Positions 13,621 through 50,858 are shown, numbered from the stretch's first letter. The stretch: DNA of 64,000 bases from Candidatus Liptonbacteria bacterium (GCA_016194445.1 JACQBP010000040.1:20402-84401), one strand, 5' to 3'. Notes: generated by a model not told the origin, from the sequence alone. Numbers and translations are program-made.

Positions 13621-14037
13621 ATGACAGATATGAACATGGTTACTTCGTTTTTACTTTTACTCGCTGCTCTGATTACTGCGACAGGACAAATATTAATGAA
13701 AAAAGGATCGCAGGTATTGCAGAAAACACTGACGCTTGTGGCACCGGATCAGTTAGGTGGGGGGTGGTTGAAGAAAATTTTCACGATCACCTTTGAGCCG
13801 CATGTTTTAATAGCATTTACACTATATTTTTTGGGGTCATTTCTATGGTTAAAAATTTTAACCCGGGGAAATTTGGGTTCTCTTTATCCTATACTGATCG
13901 GCATGACCATTTTGATCACAAGCGTCGCTTCAGTATTTATTTTTAAAGAAACATTCACGATTGTGAAAATGGCGGGGGTTATTTTTATCATTTTAGGAGT
14001 GACATTACTTTTAAATTTTGGAATCCAGCACAACTAG
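13621..14037 (+). CDS. small 4-TM DMT/EamA-type membrane protein (ArnE/ArnF- or GtrA-like lipid-linked sugar flippase subunit)
   Basis: 138 aa, four hydrophobic segments, GQILMKKG EamA-like motif; adjacent to a polyprenyl-phosphate GT2. Confidence 0.45.
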   Translation: MTDMNMVTSFLLLLAALITATGQILMKKGSQVLQKTLTLVAPDQLGGGWLKKIFTITFEPHVLIAFTLYFLGSFLWLKILTRGNLGSLYPILIGMTILITSVASVFIFKETFTIVKMAGVIFIILGVTLLLNFGIQHN

Positions 14038-14096: not shown

Positions 14097-14834
14097 TCAA
14101 AGGCGAGGTTTCCTGTAGGATGGGGTAAAATAAATACGCCAGATGAGTTTACTGATAGTGCTCGCGACAAGCAGAAAGTTTTTTAGACTCAAGGCCTTGG
14201 CTTTTCCTCCCTCTCTTTTTTGCAAGCGCGTTTCCACTTCTTCGTAGGAGACGCCGGATTTTATAAGCTCGATTAAAATCTCAGACATAAAGGCGAACCC
14301 AGGTGTCCACCGGGGCAACTGCAGTAAAAGATCACGACGGATAAGACACGCACCATTTAAATAATGTAGCTTAAGACCGAAGAGAATATTGAGTATAACA
14401 ACATAACTACGAGAAATAATCTGTCGCGAGCGGGACCTTATTTCAGCATTTGTCGGATAAGAAATGATAAGATCAGTAACACCAAGTTTCTTAACGACAT
14501 TGATGAGTGTTTGTCCGGACTCTTCGTTATCGCCTGGGACCATCATCACATACTTTCCGCGAGCTTTCTCCACGCCCTGCCGGAAGGCGCCGCCGATATT
14601 ATACGGCTTTTGATTGTGAATAGCGGTGATTTTTGGGAATTCGCTTTTCCGAACCGCGTTATCCATCAGGGCGCCGGTGCGATCGCTGCTTCCATCATTC
14701 ACAAGAATAAGCTCGCACGGCGTTTTAAGCTCGCGAGCTACTTTTTGGATGACGGTTTGGATGGTCGCTTCGATAGCCTGCTCCTCGTTCAAGGCCGGAA
14801 TAATAATGGAAAGTTGGAGTGGAGAATCTGTCAT
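14097..14834 (-). CDS. polyprenyl-phosphate glycosyltransferase (GT2, DPM1/ArnC/GtrB-like)
   Basis: 245 aa short GT2; LSIIIPALNEE...VNDGSSDRT. Confidence 0.6.
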   Translation of the reverse strand: MTDSPLQLSIIIPALNEEQAIEATIQTVIQKVARELKTPCELILVNDGSSDRTGALMDNAVRKSEFPKITAIHNQKPYNIGGAFRQGVEKARGKYVMMVPGDNEESGQTLINVVKKLGVTDLIISYPTNAEIRSRSRQIISRSYVVILNILFGLKLHYLNGACLIRRDLLLQLPRWTPGFAFMSEILIELIKSGVSYEEVETRLQKREGGKAKALSLKNFLLVASTISKLIWRIYFTPSYRKPRL

Positions 14835-15298
14835 TTGGGTTTCGAACTCAACCAGGCAAGAAGATCCCGAAAATCTTCTTTATGATTAAAAGCTAAATCC
14901 ATTTTTAAAATATCCGGAACAGGTAAATAAGAAATTTTTTGTCCTTCGGTATGATAAGTGGTGGCCAGGGATAGATTCGCCAAGGCGTAAAAAACAAAAT
15001 TGTGGTTATACCAAGTAAATTGAGAGTCATGAGAAATCCAGAAGTAGTCTCGGAAAAATCTAATTTTTTGAAGATTAACACCGAGTTCTTCTTTGACCTC
15101 GCGGACGACGGTGACTTCGGGATCTTCAAGCACTTCTAGGGCGCCGGAGATGGGAGTCCATTTACCAGGTTCTCTGGTTGCACTGACCGTCCTTAATTGC
15201 ATTAAAAATTCTCCGTTTGAGTTTTCCAGGTAAATTGACACACCCCGAGCTAGCTTGGGTTCTTTTTTAAAAAAATCCTCGTCTTGGTTAAAAACCAT
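14831..15298 (-). CDS. NUDIX hydrolase
   Basis: Nudix box GALEVLEDPEVTVVREVKEELGV. Confidence 0.55.
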   Translation of the reverse strand: MVFNQDEDFFKKEPKLARGVSIYLENSNGEFLMQLRTVSATREPGKWTPISGALEVLEDPEVTVVREVKEELGVNLQKIRFFRDYFWISHDSQFTWYNHNFVFYALANLSLATTYHTEGQKISYLPVPDILKMDLAFNHKEDFRDLLAWLSSKPK

Positions 15299-15410: not shown

Positions 15411-17294
15411 TCAGACTGAAGGCATACTGCCTAAGAACTGGCCGGGTCTTTCGCCCCGGAGTAGAGGCTTAGCGGGTTTTTTCCTCATAAAACGCTTCCA
15501 AACATCGAGCCGCAAGGTTTCGAGGAAGAATGCCCACGTTTCGCGCCTACTTTGGTGCATCGGGTAGACTCGTTTCTGGTGCATGTAGATCTTGGAGGCC
15601 GTATAGAGCCACTGATAAACTCGGGTGACCCAACGGAAAGGTATTTCGGCGAACACGTAGACGATGAGTCTACTGAGCGGTTTCGACAACCACCGCATGA
15701 AGCGGTTCCGACTCCCCGAGAACAAGATACAGACAGTTCCGAGGAGGGCCAGATTTTCCATAACCGTTTTCTCGCGTTCAGTGAAACACCCGACGAGAGG
15801 AGACCGATTTTGGTAGCTGGCGTGTAGAGCGCCGTAGTCGCCGTCAAAGTACCCTTTGCGAATGAGGTATTGGGTGACCTCGGTTCGAGGGTACGGACAA
15901 AGTGTCCCGAATTCGCCAAAGCTAGTGTGTAGGTCGGTAGTGTAGAGCACCGATTGGCGGTCGTAGTCAAGCTGGCTACGGTGTAAGTCGGTTTGCCGGA
16001 GGCGATTTAAGATGAGTTGCCGGCAGGGCAATCCGTCTGGGTTGCTGAATTGGCTACGGATCTCTCGAATGACCTGCCCTAAGTCAACACTCTTTCTCCT
16101 CACCGGTTTGAAGTGTTGCGACTCTTCAACGATCTCCGCCACCTTCTCGTCGAAATCTCGGTCAAGCAGACTCGGGATTTTTGGAGCAGGAATAGCCAGG
16201 ATAGTGTTGGAAAAAGTGCAAATACCCAGCTCCTCGGCGGCTCGGAAGCCTCCCTGGATTTCCTCGTCTGACATGTCGCGGGCAATAATGTGATCCCGAA
16301 TGAAAGAATTGCCCGACTCGATTGACATGGTTAGAGAGAAGATGCCGGCTTGCTTCAGAAGTGGCAGGGCCCAAGGATTTTTCATAACCAGGTCGCATCG
16401 GACTAGGCAGTGAAAGGGCAGACCGACTTGCCTTGGGTAAATCTCGGCAAATTTCTCTAACCACTCACGATCTGGAGGGAAAATGGGAAAGACGTCGTCG
16501 TAGTGCTTGATGAAGCGAGTGGGCCAATCCCTCTTCAGCTTCGCCAGCTCGTCACAATAACGTTCGGGCGAGTATCGTTGGAGGATGTTGCCCTTCCCCC
16601 CATACATTGCATTGAAGTCGTGTTCAAAGCAGTAGGTACAGCGGAATGGACAACCGCGCCCAGCCATGTGCGTTCGTTTGAAGCGCTGGCCGAAAAGCGT
16701 GGTTTGATAAACCAGTTCGCGGTCGAGGTAGGGCAGATCGTCCAGGTTGCTTTTCCGATCCGCATAGAAATCCGGAGTGACATAGGTTTCGGTGTGCGGT
16801 TTCCCGGAGGGATCGATGACGGAAAGTTGTTTTAACACCCGACCACAGTTTCTCTTCGTGATCATGTTCGGGATTTCGTCGATACGGCCAGACCCTTCTT
16901 CGAAAGCATCGAGGAAAGCCGGCCAGGCGTCATCGCATTCAAGAAATCCAATGGCGTCCAGACAAGGTTCTTCGGCGATCACTCCCGGATAGGAGCTGCA
17001 ATAAGGACCACCTAAAACCGTCATCACGCTTGAGCCCATTTTGCTTTTGATGGCGCGCATGATATCGATGTAGGCTCGGTGAGAACCAGTGATGGCACTC
17101 GCTGCCACGATGTTCGGCTTTAGTTCTTCAACAACCCGCATGATGTCATCGCGCTCAAGGAGAGCGAGATGACAAGTCCTCCAGGGAGCGTTTTGTTTCG
17201 TTAGCGCAGAGAGGAGCATGAGGTTCATAGGTTCGGTCATGTCTCCGTCGTCTCGCATAATCCACAAAACACGCGTTTCGCTTTTAAGCGGCAT
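15411..17294 (-). CDS. B12-binding radical SAM protein (class B rSAM methyltransferase-like) with about 250 aa C-terminal extension
   Basis: N-terminal cobalamin-binding-like domain, then CPFRCTYC (CxxxCxxC) radical SAM cluster motif; 627 aa. Confidence 0.6.
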   Translation of the reverse strand: MPLKSETRVLWIMRDDGDMTEPMNLMLLSALTKQNAPWRTCHLALLERDDIMRVVEELKPNIVAASAITGSHRAYIDIMRAIKSKMGSSVMTVLGGPYCSSYPGVIAEEPCLDAIGFLECDDAWPAFLDAFEEGSGRIDEIPNMITKRNCGRVLKQLSVIDPSGKPHTETYVTPDFYADRKSNLDDLPYLDRELVYQTTLFGQRFKRTHMAGRGCPFRCTYCFEHDFNAMYGGKGNILQRYSPERYCDELAKLKRDWPTRFIKHYDDVFPIFPPDREWLEKFAEIYPRQVGLPFHCLVRCDLVMKNPWALPLLKQAGIFSLTMSIESGNSFIRDHIIARDMSDEEIQGGFRAAEELGICTFSNTILAIPAPKIPSLLDRDFDEKVAEIVEESQHFKPVRRKSVDLGQVIREIRSQFSNPDGLPCRQLILNRLRQTDLHRSQLDYDRQSVLYTTDLHTSFGEFGTLCPYPRTEVTQYLIRKGYFDGDYGALHASYQNRSPLVGCFTEREKTVMENLALLGTVCILFSGSRNRFMRWLSKPLSRLIVYVFAEIPFRWVTRVYQWLYTASKIYMHQKRVYPMHQSRRETWAFFLETLRLDVWKRFMRKKPAKPLLRGERPGQFLGSMPSV

Positions 17295-17369: not shown

Positions 17370-17885
17370 TTAGGGCTGCTCCGAAGATGGAAAAGTCCGA
17401 CAAATTTTTTGGATGATATCGGTAGAATGTGCTAACTCTAAAACAAATTCAACTTTTCCACCGTATGATTCTACTAAGTTTTTATCTAATACGAATCCGG
17501 AAGTGGGATGGGTTTGATACTCCGCACCTTTCACCAAAAAATGAGGCTGCACTGCCTCGATGATCTGGCGGGGACCATAATCATCATTGATAATAACGAA
17601 ATCAACCATCTCGAGTGCGGCGATCCACATTGATCTTAGATTTTGATCGAAAATAGGCCGGTTTGGCCCCTTCCGAACATAGTGGTCACCGACAAGAACA
17701 ACGTAGAGAATATCGCCCTTACTTTTGGCGCGCCAAAAGTAATCAATATGGCCCGGGTGGACAAGATCGAAAACGCCATCACATTGAACCAGCACCTGAC
17801 CTTCTTTTTTAAGTTCCCGAGCTAAGGCGATAAAATCTGCGGGAGTTTTTATTTTTGAGTTAGCTCTTTGATTAACAAAACTCAT
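17370..17885 (-). CDS. cytidylyltransferase-fold enzyme, HldE domain II-like heptose 1-phosphate adenylyltransferase
   Basis: CDGVFDLVHPGHIDYFWRAKSKGDILYV...RPIFDQNLR aligns with RfaE/HldE C-terminal domain (GCFDILHAGH); 171 aa. Confidence 0.55.
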   Translation of the reverse strand: MSFVNQRANSKIKTPADFIALARELKKEGQVLVQCDGVFDLVHPGHIDYFWRAKSKGDILYVVLVGDHYVRKGPNRPIFDQNLRSMWIAALEMVDFVIINDDYGPRQIIEAVQPHFLVKGAEYQTHPTSGFVLDKNLVESYGGKVEFVLELAHSTDIIQKICRTFPSSEQP

Positions 17886-17931: not shown

Positions 17932-18924
17932 TTATACATCTCCGGGAAGTTTCGCCATAAGTTTAAGGATGTCGGCCGTGTCTTCTCCTCTTCCTTCCTG
18001 TGAACTTTTGAAGGCTTCCATGTCAATGTGGTGGACATTCTCGGGAAAAGGAAATTTACGTTCTTTCACCTCTTTTACGTATTGAGAGAATACATCAAGA
18101 ATAACCTGCCCCGCAGTTTTATTCCCGACATCTGATTGGTAGTGTTTGATATATTTTGGCACAGGTCGGGTACCCCAGTCGTAGAAATCAATGGGATCGT
18201 GACCAATTAGAAGTTGCCCATCAGTAAAGCGTCCCGATCCGATACCGTAGACGGGGATTTTGAGCTCGTGATGGATGATTCCAGCAACTTCTTCGGTGAC
18301 GCCCTCGAGAAGAATCGCGAAGGCTCCGGCGTGTTCAAGCGCCTTGGCGGTTTTCAATAATTCCATGGTACTTTCTACGGTTTTCCCTTGGATGCGATGC
18401 CCCCCCATCTCATGAATTTTTTGGGGATTTAAGCCCAAGTGCCCCATGACAAGCACCTCCGCGTTCGCGATCGCCTCAAAGCGAGGAAGAAGCTTCATGC
18501 TCGCCTCACACTTCACCGCAGCACACTTCGCTTCTTTAATAAATCTTACAGCGTTGCGCACCGCATCTTCGTTAGACGCTTGATAGGCGCCCAAGGGCAT
18601 ATCCCCGACCGTAAATACTGGCCCAGCGCCGCGCACGGCGGCGGAGGCAAAAACAATCATCTCGTCCATGGTGACGGGAAGGGTGTTCCCATATCCCAAA
18701 ACTGTCATGCCAAGAGAGTCGCCGACGATAATAACATCGACGCCCGCTTTCGCCGCGGTCCTGGCAAAGGGATAATCATAGATACTCAAGGCCGCCACTG
18801 GAATCCCTTTTTCTTTCATATTCTGAAGGGTCGTGACTTTGACGTCGGAGCGTGGCTTTTTTGGAGACACCTCGAGTTGGGCCGCTGGTTGTGGTGAGTG
18901 CGCGGGATCAATAAGATCTGGCAT
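17932..18924 (-). CDS. PanB-like (ketopantoate hydroxymethyltransferase fold) enzyme with N- and C-terminal extensions
   Basis: LSIYDYPFARTAAKAGVDVIIVGDSLGMTVLGYGNTLPVTMDEM matches the PanB core (MTAYD...VGDSLGMV.LGY.ST.PVT.DDM); 330 aa against about 264 for PanB. Confidence 0.5.
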   Translation of the reverse strand: MPDLIDPAHSPQPAAQLEVSPKKPRSDVKVTTLQNMKEKGIPVAALSIYDYPFARTAAKAGVDVIIVGDSLGMTVLGYGNTLPVTMDEMIVFASAAVRGAGPVFTVGDMPLGAYQASNEDAVRNAVRFIKEAKCAAVKCEASMKLLPRFEAIANAEVLVMGHLGLNPQKIHEMGGHRIQGKTVESTMELLKTAKALEHAGAFAILLEGVTEEVAGIIHHELKIPVYGIGSGRFTDGQLLIGHDPIDFYDWGTRPVPKYIKHYQSDVGNKTAGQVILDVFSQYVKEVKERKFPFPENVHHIDMEAFKSSQEGRGEDTADILKLMAKLPGDV

Positions 18925-18982: not shown

Positions 18983-20155
18983 CTAATGCTCCTGTGTAAA
19001 GTCACGGATCTGCTCAACTGCTTTTTGAAGTTCCTGCAATGGAGCGGCAAAACTGAGACGTACATACCCGGGCGCAAGAAAGGCTTCTCCGGGAACCACG
19101 GCTATTTTTTTCTCATCAAGGAGACGGGCGCACCACTTGGCAGACGTGCGGATCTTTCCTTTAAGAAGACGGCGAACATCAATGAAGAAATAAAAGGCTC
19201 CCTCTGGCGGCGCGAAGGAGATCCCATTGATTTTTGAGAGCGCGTTGATTAGAAATTGTCTCCGAGTTTGAAACTCCCGAAACATAAGATTTAACGACTT
19301 TTGAGAACCGGAAAGAGCGGCAAGCGCGGCCTTTTGCGCGATAGAGGAAGTGTTTGAAGTAGTTTGGCTCTGAAGCGAGGTGATGGCCTGAATGATCCAC
19401 TTGGGGCCGGCAGCGTATCCAATTCGCCACCCAGTCATCGCGTAAGCTTTAGAAAATCCATTGACGGTGAGAGTGAGCTCCTCGATACCCGCACCGAGCG
19501 ACGCGATAGAGTGGTGTTGGCCTTTGTAAAAAATCTTCTCGTAAATCTCATCGGATATAACGAAGAAGCCTTTTTTCTTCGCAAGATGCGCGATTTTGAT
19601 CAATTCAGATTTTTTAATCACCGCTCCGGTGGGATTAGAGGGACTATTCAGAAGGAGAGCTTTAGTGTGGCGAGAAACCTTATTTTGAACATCTTGAGCG
19701 GTAAGTTTAAACGGAGGGAGAAGCGGAATAAAAACGGGGGTGGCGCCGGAAAGCTTAATTTGTTCAACGTAGGTAGTCCAGGTGGGAGTGGGAACTAAGA
19801 CCTCATCCCCGCGACCACAGAGCGCTTGAAATGCATGGTAGAGAACTTGTTTTGTCCCCACGCCGACAACGATTTCGCTGGGCTGGTAATGGATATGGTT
19901 GTCACTCAATAATTTTCGAGTAATGGCTTTCCGAAGCTCAAGAATACCCGGCGTTTCGGTGTAGTGCGTAAAACCTCTTGCCATCGCCAACGCCGCCGCC
20001 CTTCGGATATAAAGAGGGGTTGGAAAATCAGGTTCTCCTAGCCCGAGGTTAATAACCGGGATACCGGATGTCTGTAGGGCTTTGACTTTTTCATCAAGCG
20101 CGAGAGTGGGCGAAGAAGAGAGGTGTTGCACTCGGGAAGATAAAGCATCTCTCAT
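18983..20155 (-). CDS. class I/II PLP aminotransferase (AspAT-like)
   Basis: NPTGAV and SKAYAMTGWRIGY (PLP lysine region); 390 aa. Confidence 0.65.
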   Translation of the reverse strand: MRDALSSRVQHLSSSPTLALDEKVKALQTSGIPVINLGLGEPDFPTPLYIRRAAALAMARGFTHYTETPGILELRKAITRKLLSDNHIHYQPSEIVVGVGTKQVLYHAFQALCGRGDEVLVPTPTWTTYVEQIKLSGATPVFIPLLPPFKLTAQDVQNKVSRHTKALLLNSPSNPTGAVIKKSELIKIAHLAKKKGFFVISDEIYEKIFYKGQHHSIASLGAGIEELTLTVNGFSKAYAMTGWRIGYAAGPKWIIQAITSLQSQTTSNTSSIAQKAALAALSGSQKSLNLMFREFQTRRQFLINALSKINGISFAPPEGAFYFFIDVRRLLKGKIRTSAKWCARLLDEKKIAVVPGEAFLAPGYVRLSFAAPLQELQKAVEQIRDFTQEH

Positions 20156-20180: not shown

Positions 20181-22016
20181 TTACTCCAGCTTCTGCCATC
20201 CCTCTTTTTCTTTTTTCCTCGGAAGTGGATCCACGATCATATTCCCAAGAAATTCTTCATCAGGTAGATAGGGTTGCATGTCTTCAAGCGGCCTTCCAAA
20301 ATTAAGTCTGGGAACAAGCGTTTGGTTGGTATCGATGAGTACATTACAGATGACAGGCCGGTCGCTTTTCAAAGCTTTCTCGATAGCGCCCGCCATTTCG
20401 TCGGGTTTCTCGACAGCAAAGGCATCAATCCCATAGGCCTCGGCAACCTTTACAAAGTCTGGCATGGAGTAACCACCCTCGGGAGTGCTGGCGTAATAGC
20501 GACCATCAAAATAATTATCTTGGAACAGCTTGATAATACCCATACTGCGATTGTTAAGAATAAAAAGCTTAATCGGCAATTTATAGTGCGCGATAGTTTG
20601 AAGTTCTTGAATATTGAGCTGGACGCCACCATCGCCATCTAGACAAACAATCTTCTTCCCCGGAGCGGCGAAGGCAGCGCCAATAGCGCCGGGGACCGCG
20701 TATCCCATCGGAGAATTGGCAAAGGCCGTGAGTAACTTTTGACCAGATTTGATTTGCCATGATTGCATCGTCCAGACCAAATTGCCACCCTCGTCAACAA
20801 CAATAATCTCTCCTGGTTTAACGTGATCAGAGAGAGTTCGAACGAATGAGTAAGCATTAATGAAGGGCTGATTAAAATATTCAGGAAGTACTGAAGGATA
20901 TTTAAGCCACCATTCGTTCGTTTTCTTAACCCACAAATCCGCGTCAGGAATTTTCGCCGTCGCGAGTTCTTCCAGCACTCCGGCAAGAAACTCTTGGGCA
21001 TCCCCACAAACCTCGATGGCTGGTTTAAAATCTCGATACTTCTTAAACTCGGCCGGGTCAATATCAACCATAACGACCTTGGCGTTACGGGCAAACCAAT
21101 CGACTTTGCCACCAGTTTGCCGAGAGTCTAACCGAGAACCAACCGAGAGGATAAAATCACTGTTCTGGATAACAAAATTAGCCGCTCGGTTTGAATAAAC
21201 TCCCAGTGAACCTCGAAAGAGTGGGTGGTCGTGGGGAATAATATCAAAACCACCCCAGGACACCACCACCGGGATACCTAACTTCTCAAGAAGAATCCGG
21301 GCCGACTCTTCGGCTTTCGCGTGTTTGACTCCTCCACCAAGCAGAAAAACCGGTCGCTTAGAATTAGATAACAAGGCAACAGTTTCGCTCGCTTTTTTTC
21401 TTAAAATATTTTTAGGATCTGTGGAGGAATCGCTTGTTGCGGGTGGAGTAAATCCTTCGAGTAAATCAACATCGATATCAGTAACTTGAAGGTTCATAGG
21501 GAGATCAATTAGAACTGGCCCCGGTCTCCCGGTGGTGGCAATCCAATAGGCTTTTTCTAATTCGTAGCGGATGCGTGAGGGATCAGAAATCCAAATCGCA
21601 TATTTCGTGATGGGTTTTACGATATTCACAATATCGGTTTCTTGAAAGCCGAGTTGACGAGGACGCAGGGGTCCCTCGACGCTCTCAATGGATTCCCGAA
21701 CATTAACCTGACCAGTGATGAAAAGAGCGGGGATAGAATCAAAATAACAATCACAAATCCCTGTGATTAAATTAGTTGCCCCGGGGCCGCTGGTAGCGAT
21801 GGCAACGCCGATGCCGGGTCCGATGCGTGAATAGTTCTCGGCAGCCATGGCAGCGGCTTGCTCGTGTTGCATGCAGACATAGTTCAAATCCCCTTTTTCC
21901 GCAAACCGTCTTCCAATGGCATCTACTAGATGCGCCACGGAACCACCGGTTACTGAAAAGATATGTTGGGTGCCGCGCTTGGCTATAAAATCCACAAGAT
22001 AATCAGTCAGTTTCAT
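20181..22016 (-). CDS. thiamine-pyrophosphate enzyme of the acetolactate synthase large-subunit family
   Basis: N-terminal TPP-Pyr domain (GGSVAHLVDAI...GPGATNLITGI) and C-terminal TPP-PP GDGG motif (LDGDGGVQLN); 611 aa. Confidence 0.7.
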   Translation of the reverse strand: MKLTDYLVDFIAKRGTQHIFSVTGGSVAHLVDAIGRRFAEKGDLNYVCMQHEQAAAMAAENYSRIGPGIGVAIATSGPGATNLITGICDCYFDSIPALFITGQVNVRESIESVEGPLRPRQLGFQETDIVNIVKPITKYAIWISDPSRIRYELEKAYWIATTGRPGPVLIDLPMNLQVTDIDVDLLEGFTPPATSDSSTDPKNILRKKASETVALLSNSKRPVFLLGGGVKHAKAEESARILLEKLGIPVVVSWGGFDIIPHDHPLFRGSLGVYSNRAANFVIQNSDFILSVGSRLDSRQTGGKVDWFARNAKVVMVDIDPAEFKKYRDFKPAIEVCGDAQEFLAGVLEELATAKIPDADLWVKKTNEWWLKYPSVLPEYFNQPFINAYSFVRTLSDHVKPGEIIVVDEGGNLVWTMQSWQIKSGQKLLTAFANSPMGYAVPGAIGAAFAAPGKKIVCLDGDGGVQLNIQELQTIAHYKLPIKLFILNNRSMGIIKLFQDNYFDGRYYASTPEGGYSMPDFVKVAEAYGIDAFAVEKPDEMAGAIEKALKSDRPVICNVLIDTNQTLVPRLNFGRPLEDMQPYLPDEEFLGNMIVDPLPRKKEKEGWQKLE

Positions 22017-22100: not shown

Positions 22101-23231
22101 TTAGTTTTGAATGCAGAATTGATGAATAGCCTCGCAAACATAATGAATGTCTTTGGGTTTTAAATATTGGTGGATGGGGAGGGTGACCATGGTTTCGGCT
22201 TGCTTTTCGCAGACCGGAAAATCTCCTTTCTTATATCCCAAATACTTAGCGGCTTCTTGAAGATGAATAGGGATGGGATAATGGACCAAAGCCTCAATCC
22301 CTTGGTTTTTCAAAAATTTAATAAGTTCTTTTTGCTGCTCAGTCTGGATGACGTAAAGGGTGTAGATTGGTTTCACTGGCACTTTGCACAAATCTCGCTT
22401 GGGGATGTGGACTTTCGGCTCTAAATCGGAAAGGAGTTGGTCGTAAAGTGCTGCATTCTGAGCTCTTTTTTCGGTATTTCCTTCAACTTCACTTAAAACG
22501 ATGCTCGCGATGGCGGCTTGAATCGTATCAAGTCGGCTGTTGTGAGCAAAAAAGATAACTTCGTCGCGATTTTTCAACCCGTGGTTCCTCCAAAGCCGAA
22601 GCTTCTCGGCGAGTGCATCGTTGTTGGTAGTAATCATACCGCCGTCACCCCAAATGTTGACGATTTTTTGTGGGTGAAAACTGAACCCAGCGGCATCACC
22701 AAAAGAACCGACATACTTATTGTCGTACATAACTGACGAAGACTGGGCGGCATCTTCGATGACAAAAAGATTGTGACGCTTGGCAATGTCTAAAATAGGA
22801 TACATGTCCGCAGGATTGCCAAAAAGGTGGACTGGGACGATGGCTCGAGTTTTTGAAGTGATGGCTTTTTCTACCGCCTCCGGGTCGATAGTGTAATCGT
22901 CGCGCACATCAGCGAAGACTGGTCTAGCGCCGGCGGTAGCGATAGCCCCAGCGGTGGCGATGAAACTGTTTGGAGCAGTAATAACTTCATCGCCTTCTTT
23001 AATGCCTAAAGCACGAAAGGAAAGGAAGAGGGCATCAGTACCGTTGCCGACGCCGATGGCATGCTTGATCCCGAATTTTTTTGCGTATTCTAACTCAAAA
23101 TCTCTTGCTTCTTGACCAAGAGTAAAATCGCCCCTTTTGGCAATTTCTTGAATTTTGAGAAGGAAGCGTTCGGGGTTTTTGAACTGTTCGGTTAGATATA
23201 CATAGCGAACTTTCCAGTTAGGCTGTTCCAT
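22101..23231 (-). CDS. DegT/DnrJ/EryC1/StrS-family sugar aminotransferase
   Basis: GDEVITAPNSFIATAG and the FHPQK.. lysine region; 376 aa. Confidence 0.7.
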   Translation of the reverse strand: MEQPNWKVRYVYLTEQFKNPERFLLKIQEIAKRGDFTLGQEARDFELEYAKKFGIKHAIGVGNGTDALFLSFRALGIKEGDEVITAPNSFIATAGAIATAGARPVFADVRDDYTIDPEAVEKAITSKTRAIVPVHLFGNPADMYPILDIAKRHNLFVIEDAAQSSSVMYDNKYVGSFGDAAGFSFHPQKIVNIWGDGGMITTNNDALAEKLRLWRNHGLKNRDEVIFFAHNSRLDTIQAAIASIVLSEVEGNTEKRAQNAALYDQLLSDLEPKVHIPKRDLCKVPVKPIYTLYVIQTEQQKELIKFLKNQGIEALVHYPIPIHLQEAAKYLGYKKGDFPVCEKQAETMVTLPIHQYLKPKDIHYVCEAIHQFCIQN

Positions 23232-23274: not shown

Positions 23275-24288
23275 TTATTTTAATTTGATTTCCTGCATGG
23301 TCTTCACGTTAAAATATTTGGTGTTGTTGAGTGAGTCTTCAAATTTTCCTGCTTTAAACGCTTCGATAAGGTCAGAAACAGCTCCACGGATGTCTCTTTT
23401 GGGTTTAAATCCTAGTTCTTTAAATATTTTCTCGGATGATATGTGGTAGGATCTTTTGTCGTCGCCGGCTTCTTGATGGTTAACCTTAACACTATTGCCA
23501 CTTGAGGATTCGACCTCCGATTTGACGATGTTGGCAATTTCAGAAACGGTATAGTTTCTGGCGCCAGCGTTGAAAACTTTAGAGTGAATTTTTTCACTAG
23601 GATGCGATAGGAGGTCAGAATAAAGATCGGTAATGTCTTCAATGTGGATGTTGGGCCTTTTTTGCTCGCCACCAAAAACAGTGATAATACCTTTACTCCA
23701 AGCGTGATTAGTTAAAATGTTTACTGTTAGATCAAAACGCATGCGAGGAGAATAGCCGCAAACCGTTGCCGACCGGATCGCCACTGCAGTAAAATAAGGG
23801 GCTCCTTCTTTCATTAAGATTTCTTCGCCTAACACTTTGAATTTGGAATAATCAGTGAGTGGTTCAAGGGGCAAATCTTCGGTGATGTTTTCTTCCTGTT
23901 TTAAACCATAGACACTCGAGGTGGAGGCAAAGATGAAACGTTTCACTTCAGCTTGGCGCGCGTGGGATACGACCTTGATCATGGCGTCGTAGTTAATTGA
24001 TTTGCCAAGTTCGGGATTTAACTCAAAACTCGGATCGTTAGAAATACAGGCAAGATGAATAACGGCATCAACGCCCAGAAGGGCTTCGCTCAGAGTATTG
24101 TCATTACGGATATCGCCATGAATTTCTTCGAGGTTGGAATTTCGGTAACCGGCAAAAACGTTAGGTTCATATAAATACAAATCAAGCACTTTGACGCGAT
24201 AGCCTTTCTTTAATAGTTTGGGAACTAAAACAGAGCCGACGTATCCAGCCCCGCCAGTGACTAAAACCGTCTGGATATTACTCATCAT
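23275..24288 (-). CDS. NAD-dependent epimerase/dehydratase (extended SDR)
   Basis: VLVTGGAGYVGS Rossmann motif; 337 aa. Confidence 0.65.
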   Translation of the reverse strand: MMSNIQTVLVTGGAGYVGSVLVPKLLKKGYRVKVLDLYLYEPNVFAGYRNSNLEEIHGDIRNDNTLSEALLGVDAVIHLACISNDPSFELNPELGKSINYDAMIKVVSHARQAEVKRFIFASTSSVYGLKQEENITEDLPLEPLTDYSKFKVLGEEILMKEGAPYFTAVAIRSATVCGYSPRMRFDLTVNILTNHAWSKGIITVFGGEQKRPNIHIEDITDLYSDLLSHPSEKIHSKVFNAGARNYTVSEIANIVKSEVESSSGNSVKVNHQEAGDDKRSYHISSEKIFKELGFKPKRDIRGAVSDLIEAFKAGKFEDSLNNTKYFNVKTMQEIKLK

Positions 24289-24300: not shown

Positions 24301-25836
24301 CTAGTTTTTGAGCAGAGTGTTGATAGATTTTAACAAGGTGTTGGATTCAACGGAATGTTTGTTGCCCACGATAGTGACAGCTAGAGCTCCGACGGCATTA
24401 CCGATAAAACCGGCGGCTTCTACGGGCAGGCCAGCCCGGACTAAGGGCGAGGTGATGGCTAGAAAAGCATCACCGGCGCCAACCCGATCGAGAACACGAG
24501 TCGAGAGTACAGGAACTTTGTAAAGTTTTTTACCATCATACGATAAACAGCCCTCGTGGCCGAGGGTAACGATGATTCTTTTGGCCTTAAGTTTGTTGGT
24601 AACGGCGGCTAAAATTTCTTTCCATTCGTCCAGAGAAGCGACTTCTTTTTTCTTGGTGATCAGTCGGGCTTCTAAGTGATCAATACAGACAAAATCGGCG
24701 CGCGGATATTTGGTGGCCATATTGAAGCCAAAGTTAGCGCTGTTGGTTTGAGTATTCAAGGCCAGAAAGGGAGCATTGTGACTGAGGTAATCAATGAGGC
24801 GAGGAGTGAGGAGTCCGTGGCCGTAGTCTGCCACGATGACTAAATCATACATGGGTAAAACTTTTTTTAAATGGCTTAGAATTTTTTTCTCAAGAGCTTC
24901 GGGAATGAGCGAGTCTACGAAGTAGTAGACTTCAAACATTTTAGTTAGAAGTGGAGAGTCAATGAATCGCCGTTTGACGATGGTAGGGGCGGTGGGGTGA
25001 TAGAAAAATTGGGGCCGAACATTGGATTTTAGATGGGCTCGAATGAACTTTTCCTTGCTGTCTTTGGCGCCAAGACAAGTAAGGAGGTCAACTTGTTTGC
25101 AGTAACTAGTGAGGTGGTTCGCGCAAGCGATGGAGCCGCCGGCAAAAGCCTCTTCGTGTTCGTACCGAGCGGCAATAATGATATCTTTGGGCGTTTTATT
25201 CATGGCTCGCACATAGTGATACTCGTCAATAATCGCCTCGCCGATGATTAAAACTTTGTAATTTTTGATTTTTTCGAAGTAGCCCAAGATGTCTTCGAGG
25301 CTGAACCTTTTTTGAAATCCTTGGAGGAATTCTTGGGTGGCTTCGGGATAGGGAGTCAAAAAATTATTAATTAGTTTAGTGGAGCTGAAGGTGATGTCAT
25401 CGGTAAACTCGATTTTGCCTCCGACCTTTTTGACAGCTTCAGTTTCCTTATTAATACCGCCGCTGCTAATGGCCCTTTTCTTGCCGTATTCATTACCTTT
25501 GATATAAAAACTGGGTCGCACCGCATAAATGGCCGGAACGGCGGTGGGAGCATCATTCACGGCCACAAAATCAACGGCCGTCAAAGAAGCGACAGCTTCG
25601 GCTCTTAATTGCTCATTAAAGATGGGCCGGTCAGGACCTTTGTTGACATAACGATCCGAAGTAACGGTGACCACTAAGATATCCCCTCTTTTTTTAGCGG
25701 CGGCGAAATGGCGGATGTGGCCAGGATGGAGTAAATCAAAGACACCGTGGCATTGGACGATGCGTTTATGCTTGGCTTTCAAATCACGAAGTACGGGCGC
25801 AAGATTATTAAGTTTGTAAACTTTATTGACTGCCAT
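24301..25836 (-). CDS. bifunctional cytidylyltransferase + PfkB sugar kinase (HldE-like, reversed domain order)
   Basis: N-terminal CHGVFDLLHPGHIRHF adenylyl/cytidylyltransferase domain; C-terminal PfkB domain ending in DRVGAGDAFLA; 511 aa. Confidence 0.6.
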   Translation of the reverse strand: MAVNKVYKLNNLAPVLRDLKAKHKRIVQCHGVFDLLHPGHIRHFAAAKKRGDILVVTVTSDRYVNKGPDRPIFNEQLRAEAVASLTAVDFVAVNDAPTAVPAIYAVRPSFYIKGNEYGKKRAISSGGINKETEAVKKVGGKIEFTDDITFSSTKLINNFLTPYPEATQEFLQGFQKRFSLEDILGYFEKIKNYKVLIIGEAIIDEYHYVRAMNKTPKDIIIAARYEHEEAFAGGSIACANHLTSYCKQVDLLTCLGAKDSKEKFIRAHLKSNVRPQFFYHPTAPTIVKRRFIDSPLLTKMFEVYYFVDSLIPEALEKKILSHLKKVLPMYDLVIVADYGHGLLTPRLIDYLSHNAPFLALNTQTNSANFGFNMATKYPRADFVCIDHLEARLITKKKEVASLDEWKEILAAVTNKLKAKRIIVTLGHEGCLSYDGKKLYKVPVLSTRVLDRVGAGDAFLAITSPLVRAGLPVEAAGFIGNAVGALAVTIVGNKHSVESNTLLKSINTLLKN

Positions 25837-28024: not shown

Positions 28025-29029
28025 CTAAGATAGATATTTAAACCAATCTTGGGTGGCTTCTTGAATCGTACTTTCCGTCCAAACGGGAGCGTTTTTCCAA
28101 TTATCTATTTCCTTAAGGACAATCTTAACTCCCTCTTTGATCGAAACGATAGGTTTCCAGTGAAGCCGGGTGGTGATTTTGGTGATGTCGGCAAAGGTTT
28201 GGTCGGGTTCGCCGGGGCGCTTTGGTAAATAGACTTTCTTTTCGGAACCGAGAAGCGTGACCAGAGTGTTGACACTCTCTGGGTGACCAGAGCCAATATT
28301 AAAAATTTCTCCGACACAATTTGATTCCGCAGCTTTCAAGAAAGCGTCGACGGCGTCGGTGACAAAAACAAAGTCGCGAGTTTGGGTGCCATCACCTACA
28401 ATGGTGAGCGGTTTTTGATTAGCTTTTTGGGCAAGAAAAACTCCGAGCGCGGCTCCATAACCGGAGTCGGTGCGAACGCGGGGGCCGTAGATATTAAACG
28501 GGCGCAAGGAAACCAGCGGCAGTTTGTAAAGTTTGGCGTAATGGAGGGCAAGATGTTCGCCTAGATACTTTGACTCGGCGTAAGGATATTGGGGGCGAAT
28601 CGCGGCGGTTTCTTTAGTGGGGTATTCATCGGGAATGCCGTAGCAACTCGAGGAGGCGGTATAGATAAATCTTTTCACTCCCCTTTTGCGACTAGCTTCA
28701 AGGATAGAGGCAGTCCCGAAAACGTTGCTCTCGAAATAATCAAGAGGTTTTTGGATGGACGGGATGAGATTGCTTAAAGCGGCTAAGTGGAAAACCCAAT
28801 CGACTCCTTCGAAAATTTCTAACATGGCATTAAAGTCGGTAATGTCAGCTTTAAAAACTTTTAAGCGAGGATGATTTTTGACGGACTCTAAATTGCGTTC
28901 GAGACCAGTAGAAAAATTGTCGATGACACTAACTGTGTGGCCATCTTTAATGAGTCGCTCGACAAGATGAGAACCGATAAATCCAGCGCCGCCGGTGACC
29001 ACGACTCTTTTTTGGTTGAAACTAGCCAT
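28025..29029 (-). CDS. NAD-dependent epimerase/dehydratase (UDP-sugar 4-epimerase/decarboxylase-like)
   Basis: VVVTGGAGFIGSHLVERL; 334 aa. Confidence 0.65.
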   Translation of the reverse strand: MASFNQKRVVVTGGAGFIGSHLVERLIKDGHTVSVIDNFSTGLERNLESVKNHPRLKVFKADITDFNAMLEIFEGVDWVFHLAALSNLIPSIQKPLDYFESNVFGTASILEASRKRGVKRFIYTASSSCYGIPDEYPTKETAAIRPQYPYAESKYLGEHLALHYAKLYKLPLVSLRPFNIYGPRVRTDSGYGAALGVFLAQKANQKPLTIVGDGTQTRDFVFVTDAVDAFLKAAESNCVGEIFNIGSGHPESVNTLVTLLGSEKKVYLPKRPGEPDQTFADITKITTRLHWKPIVSIKEGVKIVLKEIDNWKNAPVWTESTIQEATQDWFKYLS

Positions 29030-29861: not shown

Positions 29862-32198
29862 TCAGATTGATATAGGCGAAAAATAGGGATTAAAAATGGT
29901 TCTAAAAGTTGCAGCACTAAAAGGCCAGTAGGTAAAATCGATAAGGTGATCCCCCCGAGAAAGGCGAACGCCTCGAAAAGTGGTGTGCGCGGTAATAATC
30001 TGACTTTCTTTGCCATCAACAAAAACGCGCCAGCCGGGATAATTGGTCTCGGCCAAAACTAGCAGGCCATCTCTCGCGGCATGAGTTTCAAGGGTGACGC
30101 GATTGGGTTCGCGGTGACTGATTATAACATCTTTTAGCGCTTGACCGTCTTCGGTTTCGATACGAGCGATGGGCAAGGCGGTTTTATTTTCATAAATTTT
30201 CACCTCGTGGTCATAGACGAGTGGGTAAGGAGCATCTTTGGGCAAAGGTTTTTCCGAAACAATATATTTAACACTGGCAACATTAAAAAGTGGCACGAAG
30301 TTTATATCACCTAACTTATCAGCTTCGCCAAAAACGTACATGTCAGACTCGCGCTTAAGAAAACCACCATCAAAAAGCGGTTTTAAACTATTCACGTACG
30401 ACTGAAGCAAGACACCTTCGTAATTACCCATGTTTTTAAGGCCATAGCCGGTGGGTATATGTTCCATCAACGTTCTTCCGATCGCAAGAATTCGATAGGA
30501 ATCAACGTCGGGGCGCGATTTTAAATATACAACAAAGGGTGGTTCTCGGTAGAGATCTTGGAGATTGGAAGTGTCTCGAAGTTTGGGAATATAAAAAACC
30601 ATCTCGACGATAAGGAAGACGAAAATGAGGTTAAAAAGCTTTTTCTTCCATAAAAACAAAAATAGGAGTAAAAAGAAAAAGGTGGTACCAAAAACCAAAG
30701 CCGCCACGGAATACGGATTGTGAATGAGCCAGTTGATGAAGTTTTGAAGAGGGGCTGGAAACCTGCCGATGTATAAACTTATCTTATTCAAATCAATTTC
30801 GTTGAAAACAAGTTTGTACGAGTGACGAAAGGAAGGAGAAAACACCATCAAGCCGGTGAAGGGACCTAAAAACGAGAGGAGGATCGCCCAAAATTTCTTG
30901 AGTGAGACATTTTGACTTTTCATATTCTCGAATCCGATGGCCGCAAGAATCGCAAGAGTAAAATGAAAAGCGCCCACGTATCGGAAAAAAGTCACCCTCT
31001 TTAACACCGGTAACCATTCTAACCAACTTACAGGTGGAACTCCTAGCCACATCAAAATAAAGAAAGACGCAGCTCCACCAAAAAATACAAGCGATGAGAT
31101 ATGCTCAGTTTTCTTCTTAAAACTGAAGGCGGCAATAGTAAGCAAGAGAATGAAGGTCCCCATATAGGTCACAATAAGACTGTCTTCTCTCATAGTGGAG
31201 GTTCCAACAATGCTAGCTTCCAGGAAAAGTGTGGGAGGGACAGGCAAGTGAAAGAATTTTTCTAACTGTACCAGGAAATGGTTATGCTCCGCACGATAAG
31301 CGTCGATCCACTCAACGGTATGCCCTTGCCCCCCAGACCCTTGGCTAAAAAAAAGAGACATATCCCAAAGCATAGGAAGGCTCATAATAAGCGCGACGCA
31401 CAGGGAAAAAATAAAGGCGCGGCCGGTAAATCGAAGGCTTATTTTACTGGTGAAATAGCGGTATACAAAATAGCTAAGAGAAAGGAGGGTAACAATGATG
31501 ACGGCTTCTGGATTACCGCTCAGTACCATAATCCCCCAGGCGATACCTAAAAAAAAGATGTTTTTAATAATAGGAGAGGATAGGAGGCGTTCAATCCCGA
31601 GGAGAAGATAGGGAGTCATCATGTCCGCGGCAAAACCCCAGTGAGTAATCCACAGCACAAAATACGCCGAAAACATATAGGCGACACCCCCGAGAAGCGC
31701 GCTTTGATGAGAAAGTCGCAGTTTTTTAAGAAAAAGGTAGGCTCCAAAGCCCGCGATTAGAAATCTAATAAGAAGATAGTAATCGAAGGTTTTTAGAAAC
31801 GGGAGGAGAGTGAAGAGCGCTAGTTTAAGCGGATTATATATACCGCTCGTGATGCTGGCGGAAAGCGGCTGACCGTTGCCTTGATATGGATTCCAGAAGG
31901 CGAAATGGCCTTTTCTTAGCTCCTGGGACCAGTAAAGAGTTTGAGGAACCTCAAAATGCGACCAATTAGTCGAGTCCAGATCCCAAAAAGTTTTGGGGCC
32001 GTGATAGTAATAAGATCCAGCGCTTAATGGCAAACCGGGACCATCGCTAAAAAAAGTTTGCTGGTTAATGATGATGCGAAAAAAAACAATCCCGATAAGA
32101 ACAGCGAAAAAAACGAAGGCTTTTTTACTCTGGCTTTGCCGACCAACGAAATTCTTTACTTGAGACAAGATATTGCTGAATGATCGGATTGTATTCAT
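29862..32198 (-). CDS. YfhO-family polytopic membrane protein (putative GT-C-type extracytoplasmic glycosyltransferase)
   Basis: 778 aa, many TM helices in the first two thirds and a large C-terminal soluble domain; architecture of YfhO. Confidence 0.5.
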   Translation of the reverse strand: MNTIRSFSNILSQVKNFVGRQSQSKKAFVFFAVLIGIVFFRIIINQQTFFSDGPGLPLSAGSYYYHGPKTFWDLDSTNWSHFEVPQTLYWSQELRKGHFAFWNPYQGNGQPLSASITSGIYNPLKLALFTLLPFLKTFDYYLLIRFLIAGFGAYLFLKKLRLSHQSALLGGVAYMFSAYFVLWITHWGFAADMMTPYLLLGIERLLSSPIIKNIFFLGIAWGIMVLSGNPEAVIIVTLLSLSYFVYRYFTSKISLRFTGRAFIFSLCVALIMSLPMLWDMSLFFSQGSGGQGHTVEWIDAYRAEHNHFLVQLEKFFHLPVPPTLFLEASIVGTSTMREDSLIVTYMGTFILLLTIAAFSFKKKTEHISSLVFFGGAASFFILMWLGVPPVSWLEWLPVLKRVTFFRYVGAFHFTLAILAAIGFENMKSQNVSLKKFWAILLSFLGPFTGLMVFSPSFRHSYKLVFNEIDLNKISLYIGRFPAPLQNFINWLIHNPYSVAALVFGTTFFFLLLFLFLWKKKLFNLIFVFLIVEMVFYIPKLRDTSNLQDLYREPPFVVYLKSRPDVDSYRILAIGRTLMEHIPTGYGLKNMGNYEGVLLQSYVNSLKPLFDGGFLKRESDMYVFGEADKLGDINFVPLFNVASVKYIVSEKPLPKDAPYPLVYDHEVKIYENKTALPIARIETEDGQALKDVIISHREPNRVTLETHAARDGLLVLAETNYPGWRVFVDGKESQIITAHTTFRGVRLSRGDHLIDFTYWPFSAATFRTIFNPYFSPISI

Positions 32199-50402: not shown

Positions 50403-50858
50403 TTATTCAAAACCGGCTAATTTTAGCATGTCTTGAGCATATTTTAACCACTTTTTGTCGATGCGGGAAAACCACTGCAACTTCGAACTTTGGAGATCGG
50501 GTTGAATAGTTTGGCCAGGTGGAACCAAAACAAGAAAAACTGAGTTGATACTATGAGTAGGGACCCCGAAAGAACTACTACTGGAAAAAAATTCCCGGGT
50601 AGTGATGAATTTTGAAATTTTAAATTTCTTAAGACCAGTCTCTTCTTCGACTTTTCGAATGACCGCTCGCCTCAAAGTTTCACCCCTTAGAACTCGACCG
50701 CCGGGAATACACCACTTGCCGATTCCAGGTTTGTTTTTTCTTTTGCAAAGGAGGAATTTTTCCCCGCTGACTAAAACTACGTCCACGCAAGGAATGGGCA
50801 TCACAGTCAAAATCTTACGATAGAACTGAGTGCTAATTTTAGCCTTTTTTACTTTCAC
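50403..50858 (-). CDS. gmm: NUDIX hydrolase, GDP-mannose mannosyl hydrolase-like
   Basis: Nudix box [24 protein letters not shown]; [32 protein letters not shown] aligns with Gmm/NudD; directly downstream of gmd. Confidence 0.55.

Follow-up and report, generated by a model that had tools for sequence, protein, structure and literature searches.

The ThDP enzyme and its glycan locus

The stretch analyzed here, 64,000 nucleotides from Candidatus Liptonbacteria bacterium (GCA_016194445.1 JACQBP010000040.1:20402-84401, hereafter the window), carries on its minus strand a gene for an acetolactate-synthase-like enzyme dependent on thiamine diphosphate (ThDP), for which an initial annotation had proposed a place in a sugar pathway, with YerE as precedent. 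Judged by its sequence, the gene encodes a YerE-like ThDP enzyme and not a canonical acetolactate synthase. It lies in a single co-directional glycan locus of about 50 kb (~3.1 to 53.9 kb), which contains many glycosyltransferases, a Wzx-type flippase, a Wzy_C protein (O-antigen ligase/polymerase-type), methyltransferases and several nucleotide-sugar modules, and which is bounded by the gene for RNase Y (54157-55680). The following four adjoining genes are central to the analysis:

20181..22016, minus strand: YerE-like carboligase, dependent on ThDP and probably on flavin adenine dinucleotide (FAD), 611 aa (domains, tree, signatures and structural model)
18983..20155, minus strand: class-I aminotransferase of the aspartate aminotransferase (AspAT) type, here called AT1, 25 bp downstream of the ThDP gene (Pfam Aminotran_1_2, 7e-79)
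17932..18924, minus strand: glycan-type PanB-like 2-oxo-acid hydroxymethyltransferase (Pfam; NCBIfam PanB cutoffs passed)
22101..23231, minus strand: DegT/PseC-like nucleotide-sugar aminotransferase, 84 bp upstream of the ThDP gene (Pfam DegT, 5.5e-106)

In the direction of transcription, a short-chain dehydrogenase/reductase (SDR, 28025-29029) is followed by two unannotated genes, an HldC-HldA-like fusion, a second SDR (23275-24288), the DegT protein and the ThDP enzyme, and then by AT1, the PanB-like protein, an HldC-like nucleotidyltransferase, a B12-binding radical S-adenosylmethionine (radical-SAM) enzyme, a NUDIX hydrolase and a family 2 glycosyltransferase (GT2). Intergenic gaps between the fusion and the GT2 ranged from -4 to 112 bp. 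As promoter and terminator scans of the 13-30 kb region gave counts at background level (23 vs. 21.3 expected and 27 vs. 21.8 expected), the short or overlapping gaps are the only argument for co-transcription. No matches were returned by an Rfam scan of the window.

The ThDP gene is an ATG-started open reading frame (ORF) of 611 codons whose exact coordinates were confirmed, and Pfam recovered three ThDP-enzyme domains in its product (N-terminal, residues 1-129, 3.2e-27; central, 211-345, 2e-37; C-terminal, 410-559, 7.2e-40), in agreement with the full-length, three-domain protein initially described. The YerE-like class was defined by the ThDP motif G(C)DG-X24-NN together with the PYR/central/PP architecture and a catalytic Glu; by residue count, the catalytic Glu of the window protein is E52 (HEQ) and its ThDP motif is G461-D462-G463-G464 ... 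N488-N489. Motifs of the FAD domain (GGG, VDIDPAE, GSRLDxRQTG) are kept in alignment with the FAD-binding domain of acetohydroxyacid synthase (AHAS) and of the YerE-like enzyme JanthE, and FAD is probably a cofactor besides ThDP. The three-domain fold, the catalytic Glu, the GDG...NN motif and the FAD-domain motifs are all shared with AHAS (IlvB/IlvI/IlvG).

The partners of a biosynthetic AHAS had been reported missing from the window and were indeed not found there: Pfam annotation of every ORF ≥ 110 aa across the 64 kb gave no IlvN/IlvH, IlvC or IlvD, and tblastn searches of the window with E. coli IlvH and IlvN gave no match. The two flanking aminotransferases and the SDRs were also located by Pfam where they had been placed, but one of the two aminotransferases is an amino-acid transaminase of the AspAT type and not a sugar aminotransferase.

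Placement among YerE-like enzymes

Against TIGR00118, the NCBIfam model for the large subunit of biosynthetic AHAS, the window protein scored 432.7 bits, below the curated cutoff of 538.35, and it reached 300-400 bits against the specific (PRK) AHAS models, with cutoffs of 738-1084. The best NCBIfam names were all 'acetolactate synthase large subunit', yet all of them stayed below their cutoffs. When PDB entries were ranked by sequence, JanthE (8rph, 377 bits) and PpYerE (5ahk, 345 bits) came before all plant, fungal and bacterial AHAS (≤ 279 bits), and the identities to the window protein followed a similar order (PpYerE 36.8%, JanthE 36.6%, plant AHAS 31.9%, IlvI 31.1%, IlvB 29.2%, Gcl 28.1%). 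JanthE has been termed a 'YerE-like enzyme', and PpYerE and JanthE are the two solved YerE-like structures (PMC12188165, PMC12247030). The published PpYerE residue V479 is a valine in 5ahk (Pseudomonas protegens) when counted from the native start, which fits 5ahk being PpYerE.

A neighbour-joining tree was built from 83 family members together with JanthE, PpYerE, three AHAS and Gcl, and bootstrapping was performed with 200 replicates on a 31-taxon subset. In the tree, AHAS formed one clade and all other sequences its sister clade. The split between the family with PpYerE and JanthE on one side and AHAS with Gcl on the other was recovered in 200/200 bootstraps, and JanthE was nested within the family, falling outside it in 0/200. 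Compared phylogenetically with IlvB-type AHAS, the window protein thus sits outside AHAS and inside the JanthE/PpYerE clade in every replicate.

A number of signatures are common to the window protein, JanthE and PpYerE and missing from AHAS. These are an insertion of 6-10 residues with R120-Q121 before GFQE, Tyr274 at the position of the His of the AHAS 'GMH', Phe498 at that of the Trp of 'QW', and a Lys or Arg at 570 (R570 in the window protein) at the acceptor hotspot K567 of JanthE, where AHAS has Met (P-M). To these is added a C-terminal extension, PLEDM.PYL..EEF, which is conserved in YerE-like enzymes and lacking in AHAS. In AHAS, the His, Met and Trp are residues of the acceptor site.

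An AlphaFold model of the window protein, computed from a 24-sequence alignment, was confident, with a predicted local distance difference test score (pLDDT) of 87.6 and a predicted template modeling score (pTM) of 0.90. Searched with Foldseek against the PDB, it returned JanthE chains as the top six matches (E ~6e-60, template modeling (TM) score 0.91, root mean square deviation 2.2 Å), followed by PpYerE (5.7e-51) and then by AHAS (2.9e-50 and weaker). JanthE (Janthinobacterium sp. HH01; 8rph/8rpi/8rpj) is therefore the closest PDB entry in both sequence and structure. Both proteins are basic at the K567 hotspot and have Tyr at JanthE Y268, whereas the CDG form of the ThDP motif, V121, P293 and Y297 are specific to JanthE, the window protein having GDG, F124, R299 and G303 (F124 and R299 as in PpYerE and AHAS). 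Mapping the JanthE hotspots helped with family signatures and not with substrate prediction.

YerE itself (Yersinia pseudotuberculosis, yersiniose A), to which the relationship was judged via PpYerE and JanthE, is likewise an AHAS-like ThDP enzyme in a surface-glycan cluster without AHAS partners (PMC9306805, PMC12247030). [quoted passage not shown]

Gene neighbourhoods and candidate donor-making enzymes

A scan of species-representative genomes gave at least 576 confirmed relatives, and 80 loci were kept, from hosts that included Patescibacteria, DPANN archaea, SAR11, Paenibacillus, Pelotomaculum, Nitrospira, Geobacter, methanogens and others. For the neighbour counts, every ORF lying up to 6 kb from the ThDP gene was clustered across 86 loci (two of them duplicates). 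SDRs were present in 70 of the 86 (adjacent to the ThDP gene in 43), DegT-family proteins in 51 (adjacent in 20), class-I aminotransferases in 31 (adjacent in 20) and a cluster of 257-aa proteins in 36. The representative of the latter is the glucose-1-phosphate cytidylyltransferase RfbF (435 bits, cutoff 300), and that of the 436-aa DegT-family cluster is the E1 3-dehydrase RfbH (729 bits, cutoff 423); at most loci of the family it is this dehydrase, and not an aminotransferase, that represents the DegT family beside the ThDP gene. RfbF and RfbH are steps toward CDP-4-keto-3,6-dideoxyglucose, the sugar that serves YerE and ErwE as acceptor (PMC9306805). Descent and neighbour context together point to a YerE-like, sugar-branching family. 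The initial view of an acetolactate-synthase-like ThDP enzyme that serves a sugar pathway and is not IlvB therefore stands, given the missed IlvB cutoff, the YerE-like clade and the relatives adjoining RfbF and RfbH.

Within the family, the window protein forms a clade with those of five other loci (L006, L001, L005, L007 and L003; 199/200 bootstraps). The ThDP protein of L006 is 76% identical to that of the window, with the same gene order, and the module order is kept in L006/L093 at 62-84% identity. A class-I aminotransferase directly adjoins the ThDP gene throughout this clade, L003 excepted, and a DegT sugar aminotransferase does so in the window, L006 and L007. RfbF and RfbH were not found in the five loci. 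The DegT protein of the window, with an 84% identical counterpart in the syntenic L006, has PseC as its best NCBIfam model (239 bits) and matches RfbH with only 143 bits in two stretches, so the DegT protein of the window clade is taken to be a true aminotransferase.

Two further neighbourhood patterns were observed. In Candidatus Kaiserbacteria (L003/L004), the neighbours of a close ThDP relative of the same subclade (53% identical) are an SDR, a cytidylyltransferase of the IspD-like kind and a TagF-like glycerophosphotransferase, and neither an aminotransferase nor a DegT gene stands near it, which may reflect another use of the enzyme or the chance vicinity of a teichoic-acid module of the CDP-ribitol type. 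Transketolase genes split into an N- and a C-terminal half are repeatedly found in the vicinity of YerE-like genes, at about 10 loci of the family, and at several glycan-type PanB loci (L008, L014, L015, L039, L043, L090, L094, L104, L105, L108 and L152 across both sets). Transketolases too can make branched sugars (PMC12247030), and some of these loci may hold two ThDP-dependent branching systems.

The best PDB relatives of AT1, the aminotransferase adjoining the ThDP gene, are aspartate/prephenate aminotransferases. It keeps the lysine that binds pyridoxal phosphate (PLP; Lys236), the asparagine of SPSNPTG, the Asp/Tyr pair and a C-terminal arginine (Arg366), which aligns with the Arg that binds the alpha-carboxylate in AspAT-type enzymes. 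Both Lys236 and Arg366 are invariant in 31/31 ThDP-linked aminotransferases, and the invariant arginine indicates that the substrates are amino acids or 2-oxo acids, not a decarboxylated sugar branch. In a reciprocal test, the closest relatives of AT1 (58-63% identity) were encoded immediately upstream of phosphoenolpyruvate (PEP) carboxylase in 3/3 contexts; they are housekeeping aspartate aminotransferases, and AT1 nests inside this PEP-carboxylase-linked clade, with its G-x-K-Q motif. The other ThDP-adjacent aminotransferases belong to at least five further, non-orthologous class-I lineages, and in the sister loci L005 and L007 a different lineage occupies the same position. Persistence of the adjacency through non-orthologous replacement argues for a functional link, which is most simply explained by supply of the 2-oxo-acid donor of the ThDP enzyme, with the amino acid varying by lineage. 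The product that the ancestry of AT1 makes most likely is a small polar 2-oxo acid such as oxaloacetate or 2-oxoglutarate.

The PanB-like protein of the window passed two curated cutoffs (TIGR00222, 231 bits vs. 208; NF001452, 278 vs. 272) and keeps D45, S46, D84, K112, E114, H136 and E181 of E. coli PanB (catalytic residues, Mg and carboxylate ligands), so enolisation of an Mg-bound 2-oxo acid and transfer of a hydroxymethyl group should remain. It belongs to a subfamily, here called glycan-type PanB, of 22 loci with ≥ 52% identity to the window copy and ≤ 41% to E. coli PanB. At none of the 22 are panC or panD neighbours, a glycan and YerE-like context taking their place, whereas PanB copies ≤ 47% identical to that of the window mostly adjoin panC, often also panD, and never a three-domain ThDP gene. 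Such a gene was found near glycan-type PanB at 13 of the 15 loci with enough flanking sequence (14 with the inclusion of a truncated one at the L090 edge): directly adjacent (~110 bp) in L100, L103, L105, L106 and L109, and at 1-2.4 kb in L089, L092, L093 and L096. In L019, too, PanB and the ThDP gene are neighbours, 23 bp apart. Some of the PanB-linked ThDP proteins clearly belonged to the family, and the others formed a divergent group, which still scored higher against JanthE than against AHAS. Relative to housekeeping PanB, the glycan type carries 14 systematic substitutions at otherwise conserved positions, several of them beside catalytic residues, as well as extra N- and C-terminal segments. 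Most glycan-type PanB genes have no aminotransferase nearby and only the window type has both, which makes PanB and the aminotransferase separable donor-supply modules. In metagenome-assembled genomes (MAGs), glycan-type PanB genes are annotated as pantothenate enzymes. The literature searched gave nothing relevant that links a ketopantoate hydroxymethyltransferase to branched sugars or O-antigens.

Heptose-pathway genes (SIS, GHMP kinase, nucleotidyltransferase) are often carried by the glycan-type PanB loci (window, L089-L109, L152). A phosphonate pathway of the fosfomycin kind (Fom1/Fom3-like) was considered for the window, in view of its combination of a PEPM-superfamily protein, a ThDP enzyme, a transaminase, a nucleotidyltransferase, a B12-binding radical-SAM enzyme and a hydrolase, and rejected: the protein of the PEPM superfamily scores as PanB with no PEP_mutase match, the ThDP enzyme has a central domain and is not of the two-domain Ppd type, and the PDB entry 5x9q, the best match of a nearby nucleotidyltransferase, is the Burkholderia HldC and not Fom1.

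A candidate route to acyl-branched sugars and the remaining genes of the locus

Acceptor synthesis, tailoring and display of a branched sugar could draw on the following genes of the locus:

23275..24288, minus strand: SDR of epimerase/reductase type (ASTSSVYG...YSKFK; Pfam Epimerase), a candidate C4 oxidoreductase or branch-ketone reductase (YerF-like role); the TDE dehydratase signature was not found by motif analysis
24301..25836, minus strand: HldC-like nucleotidyltransferase (N-terminal) fused to an HldA-like PfkB kinase (C-terminal) (Pfam CTP_transf_like and PfkB; NCBIfam HldE and rfaE domains below cutoffs; best PDB matches HldA 4e84 and HldC 5x9q)
28025..29029, minus strand: SDR of epimerase type (TASSSCYG), kept with the module (72% identical in L006)
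17370..17885, minus strand: stand-alone HldC-like nucleotidyltransferase, 171 aa (best PDB match 5x9q; rfaE_dom_II 111.8 bits, below cutoff; 71% identical in L006/L093)
15411..17294, minus strand: B12-binding radical-SAM enzyme, putative C-methyltransferase (Pfam B12-binding and Radical_SAM; weak PDB matches to TokK and to 6fd2, a radical-SAM enzyme of the apramycin cluster; 62% identical in L093)
14831..15298, minus strand: NUDIX hydrolase (Pfam NUDIX; 4-bp overlap with the downstream GT2; 61% identical in L093)
14097..14834, minus strand: small GT2, candidate polyprenyl-phosphate sugar synthase (Pfam Glycos_transf_2)
13621..14037, plus strand: small EamA/GtrA-like membrane protein, candidate flippase for a lipid-linked sugar (weak Pfam EamA)
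29862..32198, minus strand: YfhO-type GT-C membrane glycosyltransferase, candidate final transferase (Pfam YfhO)
42775-43503: RmlA-like transferase
43590..44660, minus strand: dTDP-glucose 4,6-dehydratase RmlB (TIGR01181, 432 bits vs. cutoff 365; STDEVYG motif)
50855..51874, minus strand: GDP-mannose 4,6-dehydratase Gmd (Pfam GDP_Man_Dehyd, 1.6e-140; SSSEMFG motif)

The fused protein is probably an activation module for an ADP-heptose-type sugar with swapped domain order; 5x9q is BpHldC, the Burkholderia HldC (PMC7993394). A different cluster of B12-binding radical-SAM enzymes adjoins the ThDP gene in nine other loci, at ~28 bp in the Nitrospira loci checked. The GT2 and the small EamA-like protein also stand as a pair upstream of the ThDP gene in L001, which carries the YfhO gene as well, and EamA-like counterparts occur in L001 and L005. 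Together the three genes (14097-14834, 13621-14037 and 29862-32198) resemble the CsbB/GtcA/YfhO three-component systems for extracytoplasmic glycosylation of Firmicutes. By their motifs, RmlB and Gmd are the only dehydratase-type SDRs of the locus, and both are candidate sources of a 4-keto-6-deoxyhexose acceptor.

The comparisons establish the family membership, the intact active sites and the gene associations; carboligation onto a sugar, the order of steps and the donor-supply roles are inferred. The explanation that we favour, with a probability of roughly 0.6, is that the YerE-like carboligase places an acyl branch on a nucleoside diphosphate (NDP)-keto-sugar, using a 2-oxo acid that transamination and hydroxymethylation would supply on site as its donor. 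If the enzyme works as YerE, ErwE and JanthE do, ThDP would attack the 2-oxo acid, CO2 would be lost, and the resulting acyl-anion equivalent would add to the carbonyl of the NDP-keto-sugar, giving a C-acyl-branched sugar that bears a tertiary alcohol. In the proposed sequence, the AspAT-type aminotransferase would first convert an amino acid to its 2-oxo acid, and glycan-type PanB would then transfer a hydroxymethyl group from methylene-tetrahydrofolate to C3, yielding a 4-hydroxy-2-oxo acid. The ThDP enzyme would decarboxylate this product and couple the acyl-anion equivalent to the NDP-keto-sugar, for which the candidates are the products of RmlB and of Gmd and a heptose that the neighbouring HldE-like and SDR genes would provide in C4-oxidised form. 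The DegT protein, the SDRs and the B12-binding radical-SAM enzyme could tailor the sugar further, and the GT2, the small flippase-like protein and the YfhO-type transferase could display it on the cell surface.

In its logic, this arrangement resembles the functionalised-donor type of ErwE and MyGE. ErwE, MMAR_2332 and MyGE (erwiniose, caryophyllose and gastriose, brought together in a 'unifying scheme') have in common a functionalised donor from an enzyme encoded alongside, and their 4-hydroxy-2-oxo-acid donors come from an adjacent aldolase (PMC9306805). The differences lie in the source of the donor, a pyruvate aldolase there as against a folate-dependent PanB-type hydroxymethyltransferase and a transaminase as the candidates here, transamination figuring in that work only as a synthetic route (PMC9306805), and in the hosts, Proteobacteria and mycobacteria there and a member of the Candidate Phyla Radiation (CPR) here. 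YerE, for its part, uses pyruvate (C2) and CDP-4-keto-3,6-dideoxyglucose, while the window instead carries two aminotransferases, one for sugars and one of the AspAT type, along with a PanB-like protein. The precedent first drawn from YerE thus holds for the enzyme class, as clade and signatures agree, and its particular reaction, the transfer of a two-carbon unit from pyruvate onto a CDP-4-keto-3,6-dideoxyhexose, probably does not carry over, as neither RfbF nor RfbH occurs in the window and AT1 and PanB flank the enzyme.

A more specific form of the favoured explanation is put forward tentatively, as a possibility to be reckoned with rather than the expected outcome: glycan-type PanB and the YerE-like enzyme would constitute an undescribed folate-dependent route to acyl-branched sugars, fed by an AspAT in the window clade and possibly with a heptose as acceptor. 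The donor class predicted by this association is that of C3-hydroxymethylated 2-oxo acids. One possibility, a donor route from valine through ketoisovalerate to ketopantoate, is weakened because the aminotransferase is of the AspAT type and not of the branched-chain type. In a more radical version, the PanB-type enzyme may act on a 2-ulosonic acid derived from a sugar, so that the branch would be a higher-carbon sugar chain.

Several observations weigh against these proposals. The trees were built by neighbour joining only and with few references, YpYerE (YerE itself), ErwE and MyGE being left out. MyGE and some predicted YerE-like enzymes took no ketones in vitro (PMC12247030), so family membership is no guarantee of sugar branching. 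Besides the lack of RfbF and RfbH in the window, the SDRs nearest to the ThDP gene are of the epimerase/reductase type, and the only clear 4,6-dehydratases, RmlB and Gmd, lie 20-30 kb off. AT1 is very close to housekeeping AspATs and could have a general job, e.g., glutamate recycling for the DegT protein. Finally, no ThDP gene was found within 7 kb of the glycan-type PanB of L091, and the PanB-linked ThDP enzymes showed no convergent active-site signature, with only one conservative position (V31).

Some of these points would suit classical YerE chemistry alone, with pyruvate as donor and an acetyl branch, AT1 being a housekeeping enzyme and PanB serving another glycan step or another ThDP or transketolase enzyme. 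The nesting of AT1 among PEP-carboxylase-linked enzymes fits such a case, as do glycan-type PanB loci that mostly lack an aminotransferase and once lack a ThDP gene, the missing PanB-specific residues in the ThDP enzymes and the preference of YpYerE for pyruvate (PMC12247030). Nevertheless, we regard it as unlikely: class-I aminotransferases from at least five lineages are adjacent in 20/86 loci, many of them without a DegT aminotransferase, a pattern that neither chance nor support of DegT explains, five metagenome loci independently have PanB within ~110 bp of a YerE-like gene and L019 has it at 23 bp, and ErwE rejects pyruvate altogether (PMC9306805).

Somewhat less probable again is a product other than a sugar, namely a hydroxy-ketone or amino-alcohol head-group that would be phosphorylated by the PfkB kinase, activated by a cytidylyl- or adenylyltransferase and attached to the glycan in the manner of phosphocholine or glycerol phosphate, as a phospho-substituent. 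It is compatible with the PfkB kinase and the two small nucleotidyltransferases of the module, which stay below the HldE/rfaE cutoffs, one of the nucleotidyltransferases also matches ethanolamine-phosphate and glycerol-3-phosphate cytidylyltransferases, and the ThDP relative of L003 stands beside the SDR, IspD-like and TagF-like genes described above. However, both nucleotidyltransferases and the kinase have their nearest structural relatives in the heptose pathway (HldC and HldA), SIS genes of the GmhA type are present in the window and related loci, the family overall is tied to NDP-sugar genes, and the three L003 genes could form a self-contained set of the CDP-ribitol type.

We give very little credence to an oxidative acyl transfer in which FAD would oxidise the acyl-ThDP intermediate, much as pyruvate oxidase does, and the acyl group would pass to the amine of a DegT-made amino-sugar, with N-acylation in place of C-branching. 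In the window, L006 and L007, the ThDP gene does have a true sugar aminotransferase directly beside it, the module has no recognisable acyltransferase, and the FAD-domain motifs (GGG, VDIDPAE, SRLDxR) are conserved. The FAD of AHAS, though, is structural, and the usual DegT-family neighbour is the dehydrase RfbH. The family offers no precedent for such a reaction, and JanthE binds FAD with no redox role reported (PMC12188165). Least tenable, and largely refuted, is a canonical AHAS (IlvB) that feeds valine or pantoate synthesis with PanB as an ordinary pantothenate enzyme: it has the top NCBIfam names and the passed PanB cutoffs in its favour, but all curated AHAS cutoffs are missed, the protein falls outside the AHAS clade in 200/200 bootstraps with the AHAS-specific residues replaced, the setting is a glycan operon without IlvN/H, IlvC or IlvD in the window, and glycan-type PanB, unlike housekeeping PanB, never adjoins panC or panD.

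No decarboxylase-type ThDP enzymes other than the YerE-like ones are known to transfer acyl groups onto isolated ketones. The rare branched sugars on bacterial surfaces are made by these enzymes, which are also of interest in biocatalysis as a source of chiral tertiary alcohols. The locus places a YerE-like member, beside two candidate donor-making enzymes, in a CPR bacterium, whose metabolism is minimal and which lacks lipopolysaccharide. The YerE-like subclass was already known; what is new here is the donor-supply arrangement (a transaminase and a dedicated PanB subfamily) and the CPR host, and the literature searched gave no description of a YerE-like gene paired with two putative donor-making enzymes. 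If the proposed combination of PanB and YerE-like enzyme is real, it would imply that CPR surfaces carry a new class of branched sugars, to which DPANN archaea, SAR11 and further uncultured lineages would have related ones. Many genes annotated as PanB in metagenomes probably do not encode pantothenate enzymes, which bears on the vitamin and coenzyme A capabilities deduced from gene lists for CPR and DPANN.

Further observations concern the remainder of the locus. Its downstream end (3115-7375, minus strand) holds a complete GDP-heptose-type set, additional to the HldE-like module beside the ThDP gene, with SIS/GmhA-like, GHMP kinase/HddA-like, HAD/GmhB-like and nucleotidyltransferase genes and an SDR with an unusual insertion (two Pfam stretches). 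Upstream of the ThDP sub-cluster, 740 bp (27284-28024) gave no convincing gene and no Pfam or Rfam match; within it lies the sequence that, of the whole region, most resembles a promoter (27390-27363, minus strand, 11/12), such matches being at background frequency overall.

A FAD-dependent oxidoreductase (DAO-like; 44737-45801, minus strand) was called from an ATG at 45582 (281 aa), and homology to a 380-aa protein of L001 runs in frame to 45801, including a GAGAVG dinucleotide-binding motif. The extension from 45582 to 45801 contains no ATG, GTG or TTG and no stop codon, so that either the start codon is non-canonical or the sequence contains an error, as far as this pattern suggests. At three places, neighbouring ORFs of the minus strand share 82-131 bp (48416-49519 / 49389-50330, 39029-40099 / 40018-40851 and 36447-37238 / 37123-38253). 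In the SDR at 48416-49519, the Pfam domain begins at residue 59 and a Rossmann motif is absent from residues 1-40, so the true starts probably lie downstream of the longest-ORF starts.

The GC content of the ThDP sub-cluster exceeds that of the window (0.44), with 0.53 for the B12-binding radical-SAM gene, 0.51 for PanB, 0.49 for AT1, 0.47 for the ThDP gene and 0.55 for hyp228. GC skew is close to zero across 14000-22000 and 26000-28000 and 0.1-0.2 in the flanks. Both properties are compatible with horizontal acquisition of the module.

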